Positions 819-43,435 of a stretch of DNA of 64,000 nucleotides are shown here, in pieces (the first letter of the stretch is position 1; every line of letters begins with the position of its first letter). The stretch spans positions 1-64,000 of the IMG/VR virus record IMGVR_UViG_3300032311_001250; one strand, written 5' to 3'. The DNA comes from a virus. Position numbers and translations under genes: made by a program. The notes beneath the pieces are model-generated. The model worked only from the letters and a program-made list of their open reading frames with translations, ran no database searches and was not told the DNA's origin.

Positions 819-2924
819 GTGGATTTCAAGGTGTACACCAATGCCCTGAAGGCATATGAGGCGCCAGACGGCGAGCTTTATGTCACGGGGACGACCTCAT
901 CGACGATCCGAGACCTGCACGGCGACGAGATGACGCTGAACGCTATCCGAACGATGGCCGATACCGCCAAGCAGAATATGACGATCTTCCTTAACCATAA
1001 CTACAATGTGCCGGAAGACCTGTTTGGCTCCGTGACAGATGCTCGCGTCGTCAAGCGCTTTGACGCTGAGACCAGCCAGGAGGTCTATGACCTCGATATT
1101 GATGTCCTCGTCTGCAAAGAGGACGAGAACCCGGAGGCCATGCGCGCCTACAAGGCGATCAAGCGTGGCGTCAAGCTTGGCCTTTCCATCGGTGCTCGTG
1201 TTGACCGAGTTTCCAAGAAGAAGGACAACAAGACCGGTGAAGATACCTACGTTATTGATTCCGTCAAGTTGATGGAAGCGTCTGTCGTTGGCATCCCCGC
1301 CAATCAGCGTTCGTACCTCCAGAACGCCGTCAAGAGCCTGAAGGCTGCCGAGAAGGCTGGCGAGCTTACCCTTGAAGAGAAGGCCGCGACTGACCTCGCA
1401 GAAGGCGACTTTGTGTCGTGGTCATCCAGCGGCGGCACGGCCCGTGGTAGAATTGAGCACGTCATGCGCGAGGGCACGCTTGGCGTTCCCGACTCCGAGT
1501 TTAAGATTGAAGCTACCCCAGAAGATCCGGCTGCGCTTATCAGAATTTGGCGAGATGGTTCTGACGGCTGGGCAGAAACCGACAAGCTGGTTGGCCACAA
1601 GTGCTCCACCCTTCGAAAGATCGACTCACTGAAGGGTATTTTCGAATTTGACACCAAGGCTGTCGAGGTAGAGGGTCAGCCGGCCCCAGAGCGCGCCGTG
1701 CTCGTCAACGCGCTTCAAGATCTCCTTGCCGACACCGTGTCGTTCTACCTCAAGGCGCATGGCGCCCATTGGAACGTCGTTGGCGAAGAGTTTGCGCAGT
1801 ATCACGAGCTGTTCGGAGAGATTTATGAGGACGCTCAAGGGGCTATTGACCCAACTGCCGAACTGCTTCGAAAGCTTAACGCCCCGGCGCTTGGCGATAT
1901 TCGTGAGGTTGCCTCTCGTGCAGAGGGTGAGCCCGTCGCCGACGATAATGACGCAGAGAGCCTTGCCGAGGCGGTGTACTCCGCTAACGAGATGGTTCTT
2001 GATTGCATCGCCCATGCCATTGATGAGGCTACCCGCCTCAACATGCAGGGCATTTTGAACTTCCTGGCGGAGCGCCAGGACATGCATCAAAAGTGGTCAT
2101 GGCAGCTTCGCGCTTCTTTGGCCCCCGAAGAGTCTGAGCCGGAACCGGCTGAGACGCCAGAGGCCCCTGAAGCGGGCGATACTGAAGGAGACACTATCGT
2201 GGATACTGAAAAGGCCACGCGGGTCACCGTCACTGTCACGCAGAGCGATGACAAGGAGAAGGTTAAGCCCGCAGAAGAGAACGAGGCCGTTGAGGCCCAG
2301 AGCGCAGAGGCTCCTGCCGATGTCGCTAAGTCTGATACTGAGCCCGTAGCGGAGCCCGTGGTTGAGGAGCCGGCCGTTGAGCCTGCTGCTGAGCCCGTCG
2401 CTGAGCCCGCTGCTGAGGAGCCTGCTGCCGAGGAGCCCGTCAATGCGGGTCACCAGGCCCTGCAGGACCTTGGGGCTGTCCTTGTTCGCGCCAGCGCTGA
2501 TGAGCGCGCGCGAATCATTTCTAAGGTCGCTGAGCTCGTCTCTGATGGCGAGCCCGAGGCCGTTGTTCCCGAGGTTGCAGAGGAGCCCGCTGTGGCACCT
2601 GTGGAGCCAGAGGTCGAGGCACCCGTTGAGGCCCCAGCCCCTGAGGCTGCGGCAGTTGACGAGGTGACTGCTATCGCCAAGTCTGCGCTGGATGCAGCCT
2701 TTGCCGCTCAGCAGGAGGTCGCAGCCGTTAAGGCTCAGCTGACCGAACTGCTTAGCCAGAAGGCCACGGTCGAGGCTGATCTTGCAAAGGCACTTGATGT
2801 CGTCGGGCGACTGATGGATCTCCCATCGGGTCGCAAGTCGTATTCAGTTCCTACAAACAATTCCGGGACGAAGGCCCCTTGGCTTTCGCCCGTCATCCAG
2901 CGCATGCTGGACAGCGAGGAGTAA
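819..2924 (+). CDS. HK97-type prohead protease fused to a Tudor-like domain, a Dps/ferritin-like domain and an acidic scaffold
   Basis: Protease motifs RDLHGD, FLNHN, GLSIG, LMEASVVGIPAN. Tudor-like segment GDFVSWSSSGGTARGRI. Dps motif HWNVVG...YHELF...IDPTAE. Pro/Glu-rich linker and C-terminal coiled coil. Lies directly upstream of the capsid gene, with a GGAGG RBS. Confidence 0.9.
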   Translation: MDFKVYTNALKAYEAPDGELYVTGTTSSTIRDLHGDEMTLNAIRTMADTAKQNMTIFLNHNYNVPEDLFGSVTDARVVKRFDAETSQEVYDLDIDVLVCKEDENPEAMRAYKAIKRGVKLGLSIGARVDRVSKKKDNKTGEDTYVIDSVKLMEASVVGIPANQRSYLQNAVKSLKAAEKAGELTLEEKAATDLAEGDFVSWSSSGGTARGRIEHVMREGTLGVPDSEFKIEATPEDPAALIRIWRDGSDGWAETDKLVGHKCSTLRKIDSLKGIFEFDTKAVEVEGQPAPERAVLVNALQDLLADTVSFYLKAHGAHWNVVGEEFAQYHELFGEIYEDAQGAIDPTAELLRKLNAPALGDIREVASRAEGEPVADDNDAESLAEAVYSANEMVLDCIAHAIDEATRLNMQGILNFLAERQDMHQKWSWQLRASLAPEESEPEPAETPEAPEAGDTEGDTIVDTEKATRVTVTVTQSDDKEKVKPAEENEAVEAQSAEAPADVAKSDTEPVAEPVVEEPAVEPAAEPVAEPAAEEPAAEEPVNAGHQALQDLGAVLVRASADERARIISKVAELVSDGEPEAVVPEVAEEPAVAPVEPEVEAPVEAPAPEAAAVDEVTAIAKSALDAAFAAQQEVAAVKAQLTELLSQKATVEADLAKALDVVGRLMDLPSGRKSYSVPTNNSGTKAPWLSPVIQRMLDSEE

Positions 2925-2928
2925 AATC

Positions 2929-4158
2929 ATGAGCGAACTCAACGAGAAGTTGCAGGAAGTTGCAAAGGGTCTTGAAACCCTTGGCAATGCTCCGCACCTT
3001 GTCGGCCGTGTTGCCGACGAGTCCATTGATGTCGCCGAGGCCTATGCTACTCAGCGCGAGCTTCGCAAGAAGTTCTCGAAGATGAGCCGCATGGAACTTG
3101 GCGAGGCGCTCGACATCCAGGCCACCCGCGAAGCGGGCAAGCAGGCTTCGTCCGATGTTCTTAACCGCCTTGCGGTTGCGAACCCGAACATTGCCAAGCT
3201 GCTCGATGCCAGCGGCGGCGCGGCGCTTATCCGCCAGGATCTCGAGCCAATCCTTTACGCGATCTTTGTTAAGAAGTTCCCGTTCTTTGAGCGCCTTCGC
3301 AAGGAGCCGGCAAACGGCCTTGTGCATGCGTTCAATCAGCAGACTGCTTACGGCGACGCAGTGTTCCAGACTGAGACCGGCACGGTCACGGACGACGTGA
3401 ACACCTACGCCCGCCAGACGACCAACGTGGCCGTTTTGGCAACCCGCCGTGGTATCACCCTGAAGTCGCAGTTTGCGATTACCCAGGGCGGCGCCCCGGG
3501 GCAGCAGGGCCTTTCGACCGAGCTTGAGGGTGGCGTCACTGCCATCGCCCACAAGCTTCAGAAGACCCTCTTCCAGGGTAACGCCAACACCACTTCCGGT
3601 GCAGGCGCGACCACCGAGCTCGGTGCCTATGATGCGAACGGCTTTGACGGCCTCCGCAAGCTCCTCGGAGCTGCGGCCGGTACTGCCCAGATCGCAAACA
3701 AGGGTACCGCTGCTTACCTGAGCGTCATCAACAACAACGTTGCTGACATCCTCAGCGCTGGTGGTAACCCATCGGCAATCCTTGTGAACCCAGCCGACTA
3801 CGCCGGCTTGGTCAACGAGGTCACGAACCTTGTTCGCTACAACGGCTCAAGCCGCGCGAGCGAGCAGATGGGCCTTGGTCTTGGTTCCGTTGTCACGGCT
3901 GCCGGCGAGCTTCCGCTCCTGGCTGTTCCTGGCGACGCAATCGGGACGTACACCTATAGCTCGACGGCTTACCGCGACATGTATGTCGTGGACGAGTCGG
4001 TCTGGTCGATGCCGTACCTTGGTTCGGACTCGATCACGACGCTCGAGATTCCAGTTGGTGTGAACGGCGCTCTTTCGCGCCTCTACATCATGTACTGCAT
4101 GTACGGTCTTGCCAACAAGACCCCGCAGTTCAACGGGAAGATCCGCGTTTCGATCTAA
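2929..4158 (+). CDS. Major capsid protein (HK97 fold)
   Basis: Follows the protease/scaffold; 409 aa; ALIRQDL, TLFQGN and FDGLRKL motifs typical of capsid proteins; followed by a terminator. Confidence 0.88.
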   Translation: MSELNEKLQEVAKGLETLGNAPHLVGRVADESIDVAEAYATQRELRKKFSKMSRMELGEALDIQATREAGKQASSDVLNRLAVANPNIAKLLDASGGAALIRQDLEPILYAIFVKKFPFFERLRKEPANGLVHAFNQQTAYGDAVFQTETGTVTDDVNTYARQTTNVAVLATRRGITLKSQFAITQGGAPGQQGLSTELEGGVTAIAHKLQKTLFQGNANTTSGAGATTELGAYDANGFDGLRKLLGAAAGTAQIANKGTAAYLSVINNNVADILSAGGNPSAILVNPADYAGLVNEVTNLVRYNGSSRASEQMGLGLGSVVTAAGELPLLAVPGDAIGTYTYSSTAYRDMYVVDESVWSMPYLGSDSITTLEIPVGVNGALSRLYIMYCMYGLANKTPQFNGKIRVSI

Positions 4159-4827: not shown

Positions 4828-5760
4828 ATGGCCAGCCTCGTGACTCTTTCTGTACCGGGAATCATCTCCGATATTGCTACGTACAACCGTATCCAGGTTG
4901 GCCGTGCTGATACTGAGGATGACGCCACGGCAAAGTCTGGAACGTGGGAGCTGCTCGGATACGTCCCCCTCGTGGCCAACGTCTCTTCGTACACATATAC
5001 TGACGAAGGGGGGGACGCAACTCACTTTTATGCATACCGCCTGAACCACTCTGGAACAAGCGCCACAGGGTCGTGGAGCAGCAATGCTGTCGGCCGCGTG
5101 GAAGGGTATTTGACTGTTGCAGAGTTCCGAGAGTACGAGATCGGTGACCTCGGCTTGCCGGATGGCACAGAGGTAAGCAATCAAAAGATTCGGGCAATGG
5201 TCAAAATGGCCAGCTCCATGGTCGATTCATACGTCGGATATTCTTTCGACCACAGGCGTTCCGTAGAGCGCCATAAGTGGGACCAGCATACCCGACGCAT
5301 CTATCCGCGCCATAAGAACATTGAGTCGGTTGAGGCGGTTAGAATCTATGTGAGCGCCCAGCAATCTGCTGCGTTTACCGTCAATGATATTTTCATCAAT
5401 GACGACCGTGGCTATGTTGAGATCACCAGCCTGGCCAACGTTACCTACTCGCTCTTCCCGGCCATTGTCGCCCTCGGCATGATCGAGCCGGTGGCAGAGA
5501 TCACCTACACGCACGGCAAGACAAACGTCCCCCAGGACATCAAAGACGCAACGGCGCTTATCGCCGTTGACCTTCTTGCAAAGGACAATGTCGCCAAGCA
5601 GGGCCTGCAGGGCATTAGCCGCCTGCGCGTTGGCGAGATGGAGATCTACGCCGACCAATCCGGAGCTGGTGGCTCAAGGAATCGACGAGATCCGCTGGCC
5701 TCAATCCCGCTTGCCGCTACGCTTATGCTTGATGCCTACATTAGGACATCTATCCGATGA
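4828..5760 (+). CDS. Head-tail adaptor with an N-terminal FN3/Ig-like domain
   Basis: YLTVAEFREY...ASSMVDSYVG and ITYTHG...VPQDIKDATAL adaptor motifs; N-terminal SYTYTD...FYAYR...GSWS FN3-like pattern. Confidence 0.75.
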   Translation: MASLVTLSVPGIISDIATYNRIQVGRADTEDDATAKSGTWELLGYVPLVANVSSYTYTDEGGDATHFYAYRLNHSGTSATGSWSSNAVGRVEGYLTVAEFREYEIGDLGLPDGTEVSNQKIRAMVKMASSMVDSYVGYSFDHRRSVERHKWDQHTRRIYPRHKNIESVEAVRIYVSAQQSAAFTVNDIFINDDRGYVEITSLANVTYSLFPAIVALGMIEPVAEITYTHGKTNVPQDIKDATALIAVDLLAKDNVAKQGLQGISRLRVGEMEIYADQSGAGGSRNRRDPLASIPLAATLMLDAYIRTSIR

Positions 5761-6086: not shown

Positions 6087-6797
6087 ATGGCTCGCGGCTC
6101 TGTAAGTTTCAATATCTCCGTTGCCCAGCAGCAGCTCAAGGCTGTGGAAAATACCCTTAAGCAGGCACAACAGCAGATCGACCCAACGTTTGTTCAGGCC
6201 GCAACGCAGCTTGTTCAGTCTGAAGTGTATGGGGGACCACAGAGCCTTGCGGGCCTAGCCTCGCAGGCGGCCCCAGTAGACACCGGAGCGCTGGCCCATG
6301 GTCTTGAGGGGCCATACAACAGCGAGGCATTCCCCAAGCGACGACGATCTCAGAGCGTTTTTTCTGTTACCCCGGCCGGTAAGGGGAAGGTTGCCGCGAT
6401 CATGGTCAATTACGGTACAGACCCGCAGCAGGGGAGCTCGAATGGCGGCGAACATCCATACGTTGGATACGTAAAGCAGGACTTTCTCGGAGCGGCAATG
6501 CGCTCATTCCGCTCTCGTCTCAACGTAATTGGCAATGCGCTCTCCCAGGCAATCGCCTACGAAGTCACGCAGTCCCTCCGCTCTGCTGCGCAAGGAGCAG
6601 CAAGCTATGCTGCCGGGAAGTTGAAGCTCAGCCCCAAGGCCATCGCCGCACTAGCCGCAAAATTTGGTGCGGCACCTGTGGGCACAGCAAGCGGTCGTGG
6701 CTTTAAGTCGCGTAAGCTTGCATCGCTAAGCCAAGCGCATTACAAGAAAATCATGCGCCAGCGTCGGTACAAGCTTCGCAAAGCCGGACTAGCCTAA
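6087..6797 (+). CDS. HK97 gp10-like neck/tail component with a basic C-terminus
   Basis: APVDTGAL motif; position in the neck region. Confidence 0.65.
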   Translation: MARGSVSFNISVAQQQLKAVENTLKQAQQQIDPTFVQAATQLVQSEVYGGPQSLAGLASQAAPVDTGALAHGLEGPYNSEAFPKRRRSQSVFSVTPAGKGKVAAIMVNYGTDPQQGSSNGGEHPYVGYVKQDFLGAAMRSFRSRLNVIGNALSQAIAYEVTQSLRSAAQGAASYAAGKLKLSPKAIAALAAKFGAAPVGTASGRGFKSRKLASLSQAHYKKIMRQRRYKLRKAGLA

Positions 6798-8066
6798 ACG
6801 GATCAGGTACTCCGCTGTTACGCCGCTCTCATGCTGAAACAACAACCACTGGCACGGTTCACCAGCAGAAGCAAGCTGCTCCTGAGCGTACGTGTTTGAA
6901 CTTTCCGTAGATCCCCCGCTCCAGTGCGTAATGCCGTTCAGATACATCCGCGTTGGGGTGTGGAAGTGACCGGCAGCGCTGTAATCAAACCGCGCAACGG
7001 TCATATTCCATCCCTGCAGCTTCTTGCCGAACCCATACCAGGGGAAACCGGCAAAGCCGCCGGACACCTGATCGCCATGGAACAAGAACCACGTCTTACC
7101 CTTAACGACATCGGTTGCAAACCACGCACGTTCGCCGGCAGAGATAGTCTCTACCCACTCAACGTTCTTCTGCTCCTTCAACGCCATCGAGGCAATGCGG
7201 TACATCATGGCGTCGGCGTTGGATTCCGGGTGGAACGTGCCGCGACGACCAAGGCGGCCATGATTGCCAATGACGCCAACGACCCGCACCTTCTCGAAGA
7301 CGGATGCCAGGCGGCGAACAAGGTTAGCAAGGATCTCGCCACCATGGAAAATCTGATTGTACAGCGAGGCATCAATGAGGTGCGCCTGACCAGGGAAAAT
7401 GTCTTCCCCTTCAACCAGGTCGCCCAGCAGATACACGCGGAGCTCCTTGACCGGATGCGCCGCACGCTGGATTTCAACGAGGCGCTCTACCTTATCGGAA
7501 AGTGACTTGATGCGCTCTGCGGCGACATCGGAATTGTACGTCGGCGTAATCTTTCCGAGCTGCCAATCCGAAAGCAGCAGAATGGCCGTCTCATCGTCGG
7601 CCTTGCGCTTGTCTGCCTTTGCTGGAGCAACCGGTGCAATGTTCATTGCTGCCGAAGCCTCTCGCGCTGCCTGATAGACAGCCTCGACAAGCTCGTTTCG
7701 GTCTCGCTCCTTATCTTCCAGTTTCTTGAGTGCCTTGCGGTGGGCGGACTTGAGCCGCTCAATCTCACCGATTGCCTCGTATGAGGCAACTTCTTTTTCG
7801 GCAACTTCCTTCACGACTTCCACCTTTCCGCGAACAGACGCAATGGCCTCTCGCAATGTTCCTGGGATAATCTCCGGAGAACGGCCGTTGAAGGCCCTTC
7901 GGTCGATAAACGACTTTTCTCCCCGGAGTAGCTTGTTCCTCATAATGTTATACCCATTGATCGAACGATCTGGGTATGCCTTGCTGAACTCGCTGTACTC
8001 CATGTTCAGAGCGTCCTGCTTTTCCGCAGCGGACCACGGCCGCAGGTACTGATACTGTCCTGGCAT
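6789..8066 (-). CDS. Calcineurin-like metallophosphoesterase with an N-terminal coiled coil
   Basis: SDWQLG, GDLVEG, GNHG, FHGD and GHFH motifs; GGAGG RBS. Confidence 0.85.
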   Translation of the reverse strand: MPGQYQYLRPWSAAEKQDALNMEYSEFSKAYPDRSINGYNIMRNKLLRGEKSFIDRRAFNGRSPEIIPGTLREAIASVRGKVEVVKEVAEKEVASYEAIGEIERLKSAHRKALKKLEDKERDRNELVEAVYQAAREASAAMNIAPVAPAKADKRKADDETAILLLSDWQLGKITPTYNSDVAAERIKSLSDKVERLVEIQRAAHPVKELRVYLLGDLVEGEDIFPGQAHLIDASLYNQIFHGGEILANLVRRLASVFEKVRVVGVIGNHGRLGRRGTFHPESNADAMMYRIASMALKEQKNVEWVETISAGERAWFATDVVKGKTWFLFHGDQVSGGFAGFPWYGFGKKLQGWNMTVARFDYSAAGHFHTPTRMYLNGITHWSGGSTESSNTYAQEQLASAGEPCQWLLFQHESGVTAEYLIRLG

Positions 8067-41234: not shown

Positions 41235-41514
41235 CTGCACCTCAGTAGTAGTCTGAGCATGAGGCAAAGTAGCCACATGAGCATACAAGCTTGCACTTTT
41301 GATCAGAAAGTTCCTGCCCGCAATTCAGGCATGTCCTGACAAGAGCTTCTTGCTGGCCACAATTGTAGCAAGTTTCCCTGGAGAGTGCGTGCTTTTGGCA
41401 CGACCATTGGGCCTGTTTGCACTTTGCACATGCCTGTGTCAAGAATAGATTTTCTGTTTGTGCGCAGAAGTAGCAACGGATGCTGTGTGGCATGCGGGTC
41501 AGTATACTATCTTT

Positions 41515-42033
41515 ATGGCAAAGCGTGGGCGCGTAGGCGCCGAGCAGCTTACTGCTCTACGGGAAAAGATCAAGGGACTGCACCTTCAGGGCGTCCCTTT
41601 GCCGGAAATCGCCACGGCATTGCAGCTATCGCCGGAAACTGTCCGCAAGCATATTTACGTCATCCGTAAGCAGTGGTCGGAAGAAGGCCCTGACGCCGCC
41701 CAGTCCAGGATGGAGCTTCTTCAGCGTGTCAACCTAATTGGGAAGATGGCAGCTGCTGGCGCTGCACGAGCTCGTGGATCAAAAGAAGAGGCGACGTTTC
41801 TAAAACTCCAGCTTGAGGTGGTTGATCGCCTTGCCAAGTTAACCGGCGCGTACATGGGCGAAGGAATCCAGAGCATTAAAAACACCACAAATATGGCCAT
41901 TCAGATCAACCAGGCCACGCATGAAATTGATAATCTGCCTCCGGAAGAGCTGGCCAAGAGGTTGCAGATGTGGGCGGATGAGGTTACGGAGAATCTACGG
42001 GTGATTGATGGAACAGCAGAAGAGCGTAAATAG
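41515..42033 (+). CDS. terS: Terminase small subunit
   Basis: HTH LPEIATALQLSPETVRK; LAKLTG motif; overlaps the terminase large gene; TATACT 6 nt before the ATG. Confidence 0.75.
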   Translation: MAKRGRVGAEQLTALREKIKGLHLQGVPLPEIATALQLSPETVRKHIYVIRKQWSEEGPDAAQSRMELLQRVNLIGKMAAAGAARARGSKEEATFLKLQLEVVDRLAKLTGAYMGEGIQSIKNTTNMAIQINQATHEIDNLPPEELAKRLQMWADEVTENLRVIDGTAEERK

Positions 42034-43435
42034 CAGCTACCGGGATTGGCTTCGGGTCAAGGCCCAGACATCCGATGCGGCATTTGCCGAATACGTTAGC
42101 GGCTTGGTGTTTCCGCGACATCTTCGTGAGATGGAGCAATTCTTGGACAAAAACGACCGTGGGCTTGTGCTCATGCCCCGTGGACACGCCAAGACAACGC
42201 AGTTGATCCATCGGGCCGCCCGAATGATTGGCCTGACCAAAGGGAAAGTAAGGATTGGCGTGCTAACTGCCGTTATGTCTGATGCCCTTGCGCGTTCTCG
42301 AGCCATCAAGGCCCTCATTGAGTCGCCCTTCTTTGCCGAGGTATTTCCCTGGGCACAAGATGGCGTCATTGGCTCAAAGTGGACCGATGAGGTCTGGACG
42401 GTGAAGGGGGCCAACCTTGGAAAGGACTCCACTTGCTTTGCCGATGGTCTTGGTTCGATCAAACCTGGTGCCCGTCTTGACATTCTTTTTGCGGACGACA
42501 TGGTTGGACTGAAGGAAAATGCCACGTCCGGGCAAAGGCAAAAGGCAAGCGAGACTTATTGGCAGGTTGTTGACCCAATGCTTGTCCCCAAGGCAAAACG
42601 CTGGTACATCGGCACGCGATGGCACGAGGATGACTTTTACGCAGAGCTGATTAATAAAGGTGTCCAACACTATCAGCGACGGGCCCTAGAAGATGACAAG
42701 GTGCTTTGGCCAGAAATGTATACGGTTGCCGATATGGAGCAGAAGAAACAGGAGCTCGGCACGCCGATCTTCATGCTGCAGTTTCAAAACGATGTGACCT
42801 CCATGGGCGGCAATATCTTCCGGTACGACTATTTCCAGCGTGTTGATCGTGTGCCGGAAGGCGCTCGTAGGATTGGCGTCGACCTTGCTTCTTCCTCGAG
42901 CGAAAGAAGCGACTACACCGCTGCCGTAGAGATTCTGGAAGACTCTGAGCACAACCTATACATTGTGGGTGCTTGGAGGGCTCGACTCCAAGAGGGACAC
43001 CGGGCCTGGCTTACCGGAATTAACAACGATGGCAGCATCAATGAGGAGCGCGGACCCCGGATGCTTTGGCCCCAGCGACTCGTCGGCCTCAAGGGGCTAG
43101 ACCCAGAGCTCGATGACGTGCGATTCTTCGAGTCTATGAACATCGAGGCCGTTCAGCACCAAAGTACGTTTGTGCGAGAAATCCTGTCGACAACAAGCTT
43201 GCCTGCTCGCGCCGTTCGACCGGACAAAGACAAGGTGTCAAGAAGCCGGGCGCTGGCCGCCAGGTACGAGGCAGGAAAAGTGTTTCACGTGAATAATGCC
43301 CCAGGGATTTCCGACCTGGAGTCCGAGATGCTGGCATTTCCCAATGGTCAGCATGATGACATGGTAGATGCCTTGGTGTATGCCTCAGACCTTGGGGGAT
43401 CTGGTTTTTACTTTACCTCAGCCAAGAGGTATTAG
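42005..43435 (+). CDS. terL: Terminase large subunit
   Basis: Walker A MPRGHAKTT, Walker B ILFADD, GTRWHEDD; nuclease motifs GVDLA, SDYTA, HDDMVDA. Confidence 0.95.
   Translation: MMEQQKSVNSSYRDWLRVKAQTSDAAFAEYVSGLVFPRHLREMEQFLDKNDRGLVLMPRGHAKTTQLIHRAARMIGLTKGKVRIGVLTAVMSDALARSRAIKALIESPFFAEVFPWAQDGVIGSKWTDEVWTVKGANLGKDSTCFADGLGSIKPGARLDILFADDMVGLKENATSGQRQKASETYWQVVDPMLVPKAKRWYIGTRWHEDDFYAELINKGVQHYQRRALEDDKVLWPEMYTVADMEQKKQELGTPIFMLQFQNDVTSMGGNIFRYDYFQRVDRVPEGARRIGVDLASSSSERSDYTAAVEILEDSEHNLYIVGAWRARLQEGHRAWLTGINNDGSINEERGPRMLWPQRLVGLKGLDPELDDVRFFESMNIEAVQHQSTFVREILSTTSLPARAVRPDKDKVSRSRALAARYEAGKVFHVNNAPGISDLESEMLAFPNGQHDDMVDALVYASDLGGSGFYFTSAKRY

Follow-up and report, generated by a model that had tools for sequence, protein, structure and literature searches.

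The window analysed in this study covers bases 1-64000 of a linear IMG/VR virus record of 78,442 bp (IMGVR_UViG_3300032311_001250), which is estimated to be ~90% complete. Near its 5' end lies a gene for a polyprotein of 701 amino acids (aa) in which a prohead protease, a Tudor-like domain, a Dps (mini-ferritin) domain, an acidic Pro/Glu-rich linker and a putative scaffold follow one another in a single uninterrupted open reading frame (ORF; Table 1). The GTG start codon is located five bases 3' of GGAGG, all 701 codons are free of stops, and the start residue is matched by homologs in an alignment. This order of domains had been proposed by the first-pass annotation from the letters of the sequence, and the ORF, the Pfam matches and a structure model agree with it. 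The gene for an SU10-type major capsid protein is separated from the stop of the ORF by 4 nucleotides (nt; 2924 vs 2929), and the polyprotein gene lies in the head module of a tailed phage.

Table 1. Features of the polyprotein gene and of neighbouring genes in the window (aa numbers refer to the 701-aa protein).
Feature	Position (nt)	Strand	Basis
Polyprotein, 701 aa: protease / Tudor-like / Dps / linker / scaffold	819..2924	+	Uninterrupted ORF, GTG start after GGAGG
S78 (HK97-family) prohead serine protease domain, aa 1-180	819..1358	+	Pfam PF04586, PHROG, model
Tudor-like beta-barrel (Hva1_TUDOR / DUF2945 type), aa 194-270	1398..1628	+	Pfam PF11160, model
Dps (mini-ferritin) domain, aa 288-436	1680..2126	+	Pfam, PDB search, Foldseek, conserved flanks
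Ferroxidase-centre motif H317-x11-H329-x14-D344-x3-E348	1767..1862	+	Read from sequence
Acidic Pro/Glu-rich linker, mostly disordered (about aa 437-541 and 576-608), short helices aa 543-575	2127..2642	+	Predicted local distance difference test score (pLDDT) ~30, isoelectric point (pI) ~4.05
Internal ribosome-binding site GAAGGAG (2184-2190), 8-nt spacer, in-frame GTG (2199-2201; aa 461)	2184..2201	+	DNA-level conservation
Predicted nested scaffold-only gene, 241 aa, C-terminal third in frame	2199..2924	+	Inferred from conserved internal start
Helical scaffold core (aa 609-667) and conserved C-terminal end (aa 686-701), likely the capsid-docking part	2643..2924	+	Model, conservation
Major capsid protein, SU10 type	2929..4158	+	Pfam PF17236 E 3.4e-10; PHROG 752 major head protein E 1.4e-10
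Head-tail adaptor	4828-5760		
Tape-measure-size ORF, 3534 aa	10956-21560		
Large terminase (terL)	42005-43435		

The identity of the Dps domain was assessed by profile, sequence and structure searches. The Pfam family Ferritin (PF00210) matches aa 297-434 (nt 1707-2120) with an E-value (E) of 8.7e-13 and 48.8 bits against a cut-off of 24.5, and a six-frame search returns the same family at 53.7 bits. The phage Dps family PHROG 3636 matches aa 295-434 (E 1e-22), and a sequence search of the PDB retrieves the Dps proteins of P. aeruginosa (8ff9, E 1.1e-16) and V. cholerae (3iq1, E 1.7e-12). An AlphaFold2 single-chain model of the 701-aa protein, built on 47 homologs, folds aa 290-434 into a bundle of four helices whose BC loop contains a further short helix (helices 290-319, 325-352, 361-366 (short), 379-406, and 410-434) at a pLDDT above 90. 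In Foldseek, the top ranks are occupied by Dps structures only, with TM scores of 0.85-0.89 and a root-mean-square deviation of ~1.9 A over ~145 residues. By every sequence and fold criterion tested, the domain is a genuine member of the Dps family, as the first-pass annotation had expected for aa ~290-435. The flanks of the module, [KR]AVE[VIL]EGQ and SWQLRASLAPEE, are conserved in every architecture.

The ligands of the ferroxidase centre are spaced exactly as first noted, i.e., His, His(+12), Asp(+27) and Glu(+31) counted from aa 317, and H317, H329, D344 and E348 fall on the same alignment columns as the HWNV..H..D..AE motif of Dps proteins with solved structures. Of the 214 fused domains (184 unique sequences), 211 retain all four ligands, as do all 119 short phage-type Dps proteins; the exceptions are additional copies in the multi-Dps protein P0385 and one other protein (P0262). 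The relatives P0255 and P0385 have Dps domains in tandem (two or three), the ligands being lost in two of the P0385 copies. In Dps proteins, the ferroxidase centre is assembled from two subunits, across the dimer interface. The near-complete retention of the ligands argues for selection on catalysis and, since the centre spans the interface, implies selection on dimerisation as well. This pattern of conservation argues that the Dps domain still dimerises and catalyses, and the need of the ferroxidase site for a dimer interface indirectly implies assembly into a 12-mer. The domain is acidic (pI 4.42, 26 acidic vs 10 basic residues), its N-terminal flank KAVEVEGQPAPER is not basic, and a Lys-rich tail as in Dps proteins that bind DNA in the E. 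coli manner is absent, which makes direct DNA binding of that type unlikely.

The N-terminal part of the polyprotein is matched by Peptidase_S78 (PF04586) at aa 103-177 (E 4e-7, 30.7 bits against a cut-off of 21) and by four PHROG head maturation protease families (E 6e-10 to 3e-5), and aa 1-180 are folded in the model with a pLDDT of 75-90. H60 and S123 (the latter within GLSIGAR) are invariant across the 47 homologs and presumably correspond to the catalytic pair of HK97 gp4. With a profile match above the cut-off and a capsid gene adjoining, the protein can be assigned to the S78 / HK97-family class of prohead proteases.

The linker that follows the Dps domain appears to contain a second translation start. 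Close relatives, also those that lack Dps, share an invariant GAAGGAG and GTG with variable codons in between; in relatives that are ~50% identical, an ATG stands at the equivalent place, preceded by CAGGAGA or GAGGAGA. The start was surveyed in 32 unique homolog ORFs. A Shine-Dalgarno (SD) sequence with a start codon lies no more than 14 codons 5' of a K(K/A)TRVTVTV motif in all 27 motif-bearing ORFs, which are related to one another, compared with a background of 0.003 per codon in the same ORFs. Four of the five motif-free ORFs have an SD and a start at the equivalent linker position, and a distant protease-only relative (L136) has none at that position. The motif itself, EKATRVTVTV in the window (2208-2237, aa 464-473), immediately follows the predicted nested start and is conserved although the disordered linker around it varies. 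Because both the start codon and the SD variant change across diverged members, it is argued that the internal start is maintained. It likely gives rise to a 241-aa scaffold-only product, nested as in lambda C/Nu3, in which case the Dps-bearing chain would probably be a minor species and the scaffold-only product the more abundant one. The C-terminal part consists, in the model, of a 59-residue helix (aa 609-667) and a terminal helix (aa 691-700), and A620-D625, W688, L689, P691 and L697 are invariant in the scaffold part among the 47 homologs.

Relatives differ in what occupies the slot between the protease and the scaffold, with the orders protease-Tudor-Dps, protease-Dps, protease-Dps-Tudor and protease-Tudor all being present. 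In a phylogeny of the adjoining capsid protein from 27 loci, the architecture changes at least 11 times and the presence of Dps at least five times; for example, the loci L084 (with Dps) and L094 (without Dps) are sisters. Dps-free relatives have capsid proteins that are 86-93% identical and scaffold ends that are 82-97% identical. Judged from these comparisons, modules have been gained, lost and reordered repeatedly, and Dps is an accessory cargo, not a part of the assembly machinery. This bears on the view that a Dps 12-mer bundles twelve protease-scaffold chains into a multivalent assembly nucleus, with the iron chemistry being incidental. Scaffolds do act as oligomers, assembly would be strongly nucleated by a 12-mer from which twelve long tethers extend, and the tandem Dps domains of P0255 and P0385 would suit such a hub. 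The existence of close relatives without Dps argues that the domain is not needed to build the head, and retention of the ferroxidase ligands is not required by a purely structural role, so that a structural hub is considered quite unlikely. An oligomeric scaffold core, which had been offered as one possible function by the first-pass annotation, is unlikely, and Dps as an essential core was rejected as the main explanation on account of the Dps-free sister phages.

The fusion is not confined to the window. Relatives retrieved by a word-indexed search numbered 988, many being ~700 aa long and combining PF04586 with PF00210; they are encoded on independent 70-90 kb contigs that come from four sources (JGI, ENA, Logan, and NCBI). 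Within IMG/VR, 62 loci bear the gene. A misassembly or frameshift that joined separate protease, Dps and scaffold genes, an artefact of the kind that the first-pass annotation had named as refuting its reading, is excluded by the same frame on many independent contigs and by the conserved module junctions, and its probability is negligible. When proteins with a length of at least 299 aa were searched with a profile of stand-alone phage Dps, at least 906 clusters matched with an E of no more than 1e-10; among the 120 clusters listed, 96 carry an S78 protease (PF04586) and one an XkdF-type protease (PF14550). An exhaustive phmmer search of 1.84 billion representatives gave 38 Dps-bearing proteins of at least 300 aa in which the position of Dps varies. 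Two belong to the window's own family; the other 36 clusters, each a different 50%-identity group, were subjected to a domain scan. The commonest partners of Dps in these were head maturation protease families, and a minor head protein and MuF also occur; no replication or metabolic partners were found among the long proteins sampled. Occasional co-domains are Zeta-toxin (2), HAD phosphatase / kinase (3), MuF (1) and WGR (1), and Tudor too, and they point to a wider set of head-loaded enzymes. A second lineage is represented by a 116-kb phage contig (L018:3699-8921, + strand), on which a 1740-aa protein has a protease-like region at aa 1018-1368 followed by Dps at aa 1433-1569. This protein is encoded directly 5' of a phrog_777 major head protein that is unrelated to the window's capsid protein. 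Given the partners seen across searches and in this second lineage, the association of this type of Dps with head-internal assembly proteins is recurrent. As far as the literature search reached, no description of Dps within a protease-scaffold was found, only of stand-alone phage Dps, which is already published.

Based on these observations, a mechanism is proposed in which the gene would give two in-frame products, i.e., a minor full-length chain and a probably more abundant 241-aa scaffold-only protein from GTG 2199. In the full-length chain, the protease, the Tudor-like domain and a Dps domain with intact ligands would be tethered by the long acidic linker to the scaffold end. The common C-terminal helical part would dock inside the assembling SU10-type shell, and through this shared docking end the protease, Tudor and Dps domains would be co-assembled within the procapsid. 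The protease would then digest the tethers and the scaffold. Engineered Dps cages are reported to tolerate fusions at both ends (PMC12967773, PMC6712498). The freed Dps domain could form a dimer-based 12-mer because both of its ends would lie outside the cage, and the cage would stay with the DNA because it would be too large for the capsid pores. There, it would oxidise and store Fe2+ using H2O2 or O2, so that the packaged genome would suffer less Fenton damage for as long as the phage is free-living.

Confidence differs between the parts of this proposal. Loading of Dps into the procapsid, the core of the first-pass annotation, is highly probable and well supported by the position of Dps between the protease and a conserved scaffold end, directly upstream of the capsid gene; comparison among relatives favours it strongly, with the restriction that Dps is predicted on a minor species and not on every scaffold molecule. 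Retention in the virion is about evenly balanced, and a protective or iron-storing role may be possible but is held tentatively. The chain as a whole, in which Dps is loaded as accessory cargo, freed, retained as a cage and left to scavenge Fe2+ and peroxide beside the DNA, is slightly favoured.

Several points weigh against this proposal. The protease could destroy Dps, or free it ahead of assembly. The scaffold role of the C-terminal part is likely from position and shape only, a PHROG search of the predicted nested scaffold returned no family match, and the 27 ORFs that share the nested start, being related, do not represent independent events. The D/E/D acidic residues that line the pore of 8ff9 are aligned with M/Q/N in the window's domain (aa 408-416, window 2040-2066), and iron entry may therefore differ from that of canonical Dps; most phage-type Dps proteins carry NEQG at the acidic-residue positions of 8ff9 before the last helix. 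Lastly, the nearest stand-alone phage Dps proteins are encoded in replication modules, so that a cytoplasmic role is known for the clade.

The last point is the starting position for an explanation in which Dps is not a virion component and instead lowers free iron and peroxide stress in the infected cell during replication and packaging; the fusion would merely ensure late, high expression, and the protease would free the Dps. Stand-alone relatives that are 45-54% identical adjoin replication initiator and DnaB genes in other phages, and the published reading of phage Dps is oxidative-stress tolerance during infection (PMC8008677). One such gene, for a 144-aa stand-alone Dps of the same phage type (L010:8001-8435, + strand), is flanked on one side by replication genes (initiator, DnaC-like, DnaB-like) and on the other by baseplate genes of a 94-kb myovirus-like contig. 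In contrast, the partners of Dps among the long proteins sampled are overwhelmingly head-internal, and a Dps domain placed between the protease and the docking end is forced into co-assembly unless cleavage precedes assembly. S78 proteases are generally activated within the procapsid, which also counts against a cytoplasmic helper, and this explanation is deemed unlikely.

Two further explanations accept loading into the head and differ from the proposed shielding of the genome in what the enclosed Dps would do. It might be delivered together with the DNA to blunt an oxidative burst or an iron-dependent defence early in the next host. The polyproteins of relatives also bear Zeta-toxin, polynucleotide kinase/HAD phosphatase, MuF and WGR domains, which we take to be typical of head-packaged 'polyvalent' proteins. 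No ejection signal was found, and a folded 12-mer of ~9 nm cannot pass the tail channel and would have to unfold and refold, so that an injected effector is very unlikely. Alternatively, the enclosed Dps might mainly hoard iron from the host as it dies, whether to provide for the following infection or incidentally. In favour of this are the intact ferroxidase centre, the capacity of a Dps cage for as many as ~500 Fe, and the abundance of relatives in environmental metagenomes; on the other hand, iron caged inside a capsid that remains outside the cell is not delivered, and the acidic pore-lining residues are reduced. Such a carrier role is the least probable of the alternatives in which the fusion itself is genuine.

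If Dps is enclosed in virions as proposed, the DNA in the phage head would be accompanied by a functional enzyme that counters oxidants and stores iron. Both the survival of free virions under peroxide and iron in sunlit water and the amount of iron in the viral size fraction would be affected; should the cage act mainly as an iron carrier, virions would form a measurable iron pool in lake water. The modular slot together with the nested scaffold start suggests a natural, engineerable way of loading proteins into HK97-type capsids. The broadest generalisation is regarded as rather unlikely: the capsids of many tailed phages in the environment would serve as iron compartments in the manner of encapsulins, with one or more scaffold-loaded, active Dps cages per virion that mineralise iron and shield the genome. 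Under this generalisation, the protease-scaffold slot would offer phages a widespread and hitherto undescribed way to load enzymes into their heads.

The remaining domain of the polyprotein is Tudor-like. Hva1_TUDOR (PF11160) matches aa 196-242 with E 7e-5 and 23.3 bits, slightly below the cut-off of 24.1, and aa 196-268 are modelled as an all-beta barrel; among relatives, the domain is variously present, absent or relocated. It is also found, at 44-49% identity, in the cultured phages Roseobacter phage CRP-811 and Limnohabitans phage DC31. In CRP-811 (L139:2114-4564), it lies within an 816-aa 'major capsid protein' that adjoins the portal gene, and in DC31 (L140:2012-3229) in a 405-aa protein encoded two genes 5' of the capsid gene.

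With respect to the surrounding genome, the ORF just 5' of the large terminase gene (41458-42033, + strand) is by position a candidate for the small terminase, its sole match being an 'RNase E' PHROG (E 1.8e-7), and a 425-aa ORF at 6789-8066 (- strand) is oriented opposite to the otherwise plus-strand head-tail module. No tRNAs were found within the 64,000-nt window. In the relative L084, the portal gene is divergent and directly upstream of the protease gene; the window's record ends short of that point. The 724-aa portal of L084 (2964-5138, - strand) has extra C-terminal domains, a polynucleotide-kinase/HAD-phosphatase-like one and phrog_2859, and thus a second head protein of the lineage bears enzyme-like cargo. 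A blastn search of 819-4158 against cultured phages gave no match, and tblastn against cultured phages gave partial Tudor or Dps matches only, without a close cultured relative. A scan of genome contigs yielded one distant protease-only match in a metagenome-assembled genome of the Actinomycetes, which is the sole hint to the host.

Compared with known systems, the domain shares with cellular Dps proteins (P. aeruginosa 8ff9, V. cholerae 3iq1, and Listeria innocua) the fold, the length, the H/H/D/E inter-subunit ligands and the HW motif, whereas it is only 28-30% identical, acidic, devoid of a basic DNA-binding tail, altered to M/Q/N at the acidic pore positions of 8ff9, and embedded in a 701-aa virion-assembly polyprotein. 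Dps is likewise phage-encoded in Gratiaviridae, other gut phages and Lactobacillus phages, as stand-alone genes (PMC8008677). The nearest of the stand-alone proteins, at the 45-54% identity given above, share the signature NEQGI.NFLAER.DMHQKW.WQL with the window's domain. They differ in being encoded by separate 145-aa genes in replication or accessory regions and in being read as cytoplasmic helpers, whereas the window's domain lies within a head-assembly protein.

The nested or fused genes lambda C/Nu3, Mu I/Z, P2 gpO and herpesvirus UL26/UL26.5 place a protease N-terminally and a scaffold C-terminally within a single reading frame, as in the window. To our knowledge, none of the known nested or fused protease/scaffold examples carries an enzyme cargo between protease and scaffold; in the window's gene, by contrast, the middle is a slot for Dps and/or a Tudor-like domain in variable order. 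For lambda, the C-Nu3 complex has been described (PMC3224144). T4 internal proteins and MuF-fused effectors are similar in that accessory domains are sent to the capsid interior via a head-assembly element, and differ in that the carrier here is the protease-scaffold, in place of MuF or a short targeting peptide, and the predicted cargo a cage whose large size makes ejection unlikely. Lastly, the layout resembles encapsulin loading, in which an iron-oxidising ferritin-superfamily protein is joined through a flexible linker to a C-terminal element that binds the interior of an HK97-fold shell; in the window, the likeness is one of layout only. The cargo is Dps and not EncFtn/Flp, and the putative targeting element is a whole scaffold domain common to the predicted nested scaffold gene. 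Encapsulin shells enclose only protein cargo and lack portal, terminase and tail, whereas the shell here is a DNA-packaging phage capsid. The comparison with encapsulin cargo made by the first-pass annotation therefore stands as an analogy and not as an identification, since the terminase, adaptor and tape measure genes belong to a tailed phage and not to an encapsulin system. If Dps is enclosed in virions, this would bear on the evolutionary link between phage scaffolds and the loading of encapsulin cargo; under the broadest and rather unlikely generalisation given above, the slot would be an extant form halfway between scaffolding in phages and the targeting of cargo in encapsulins.

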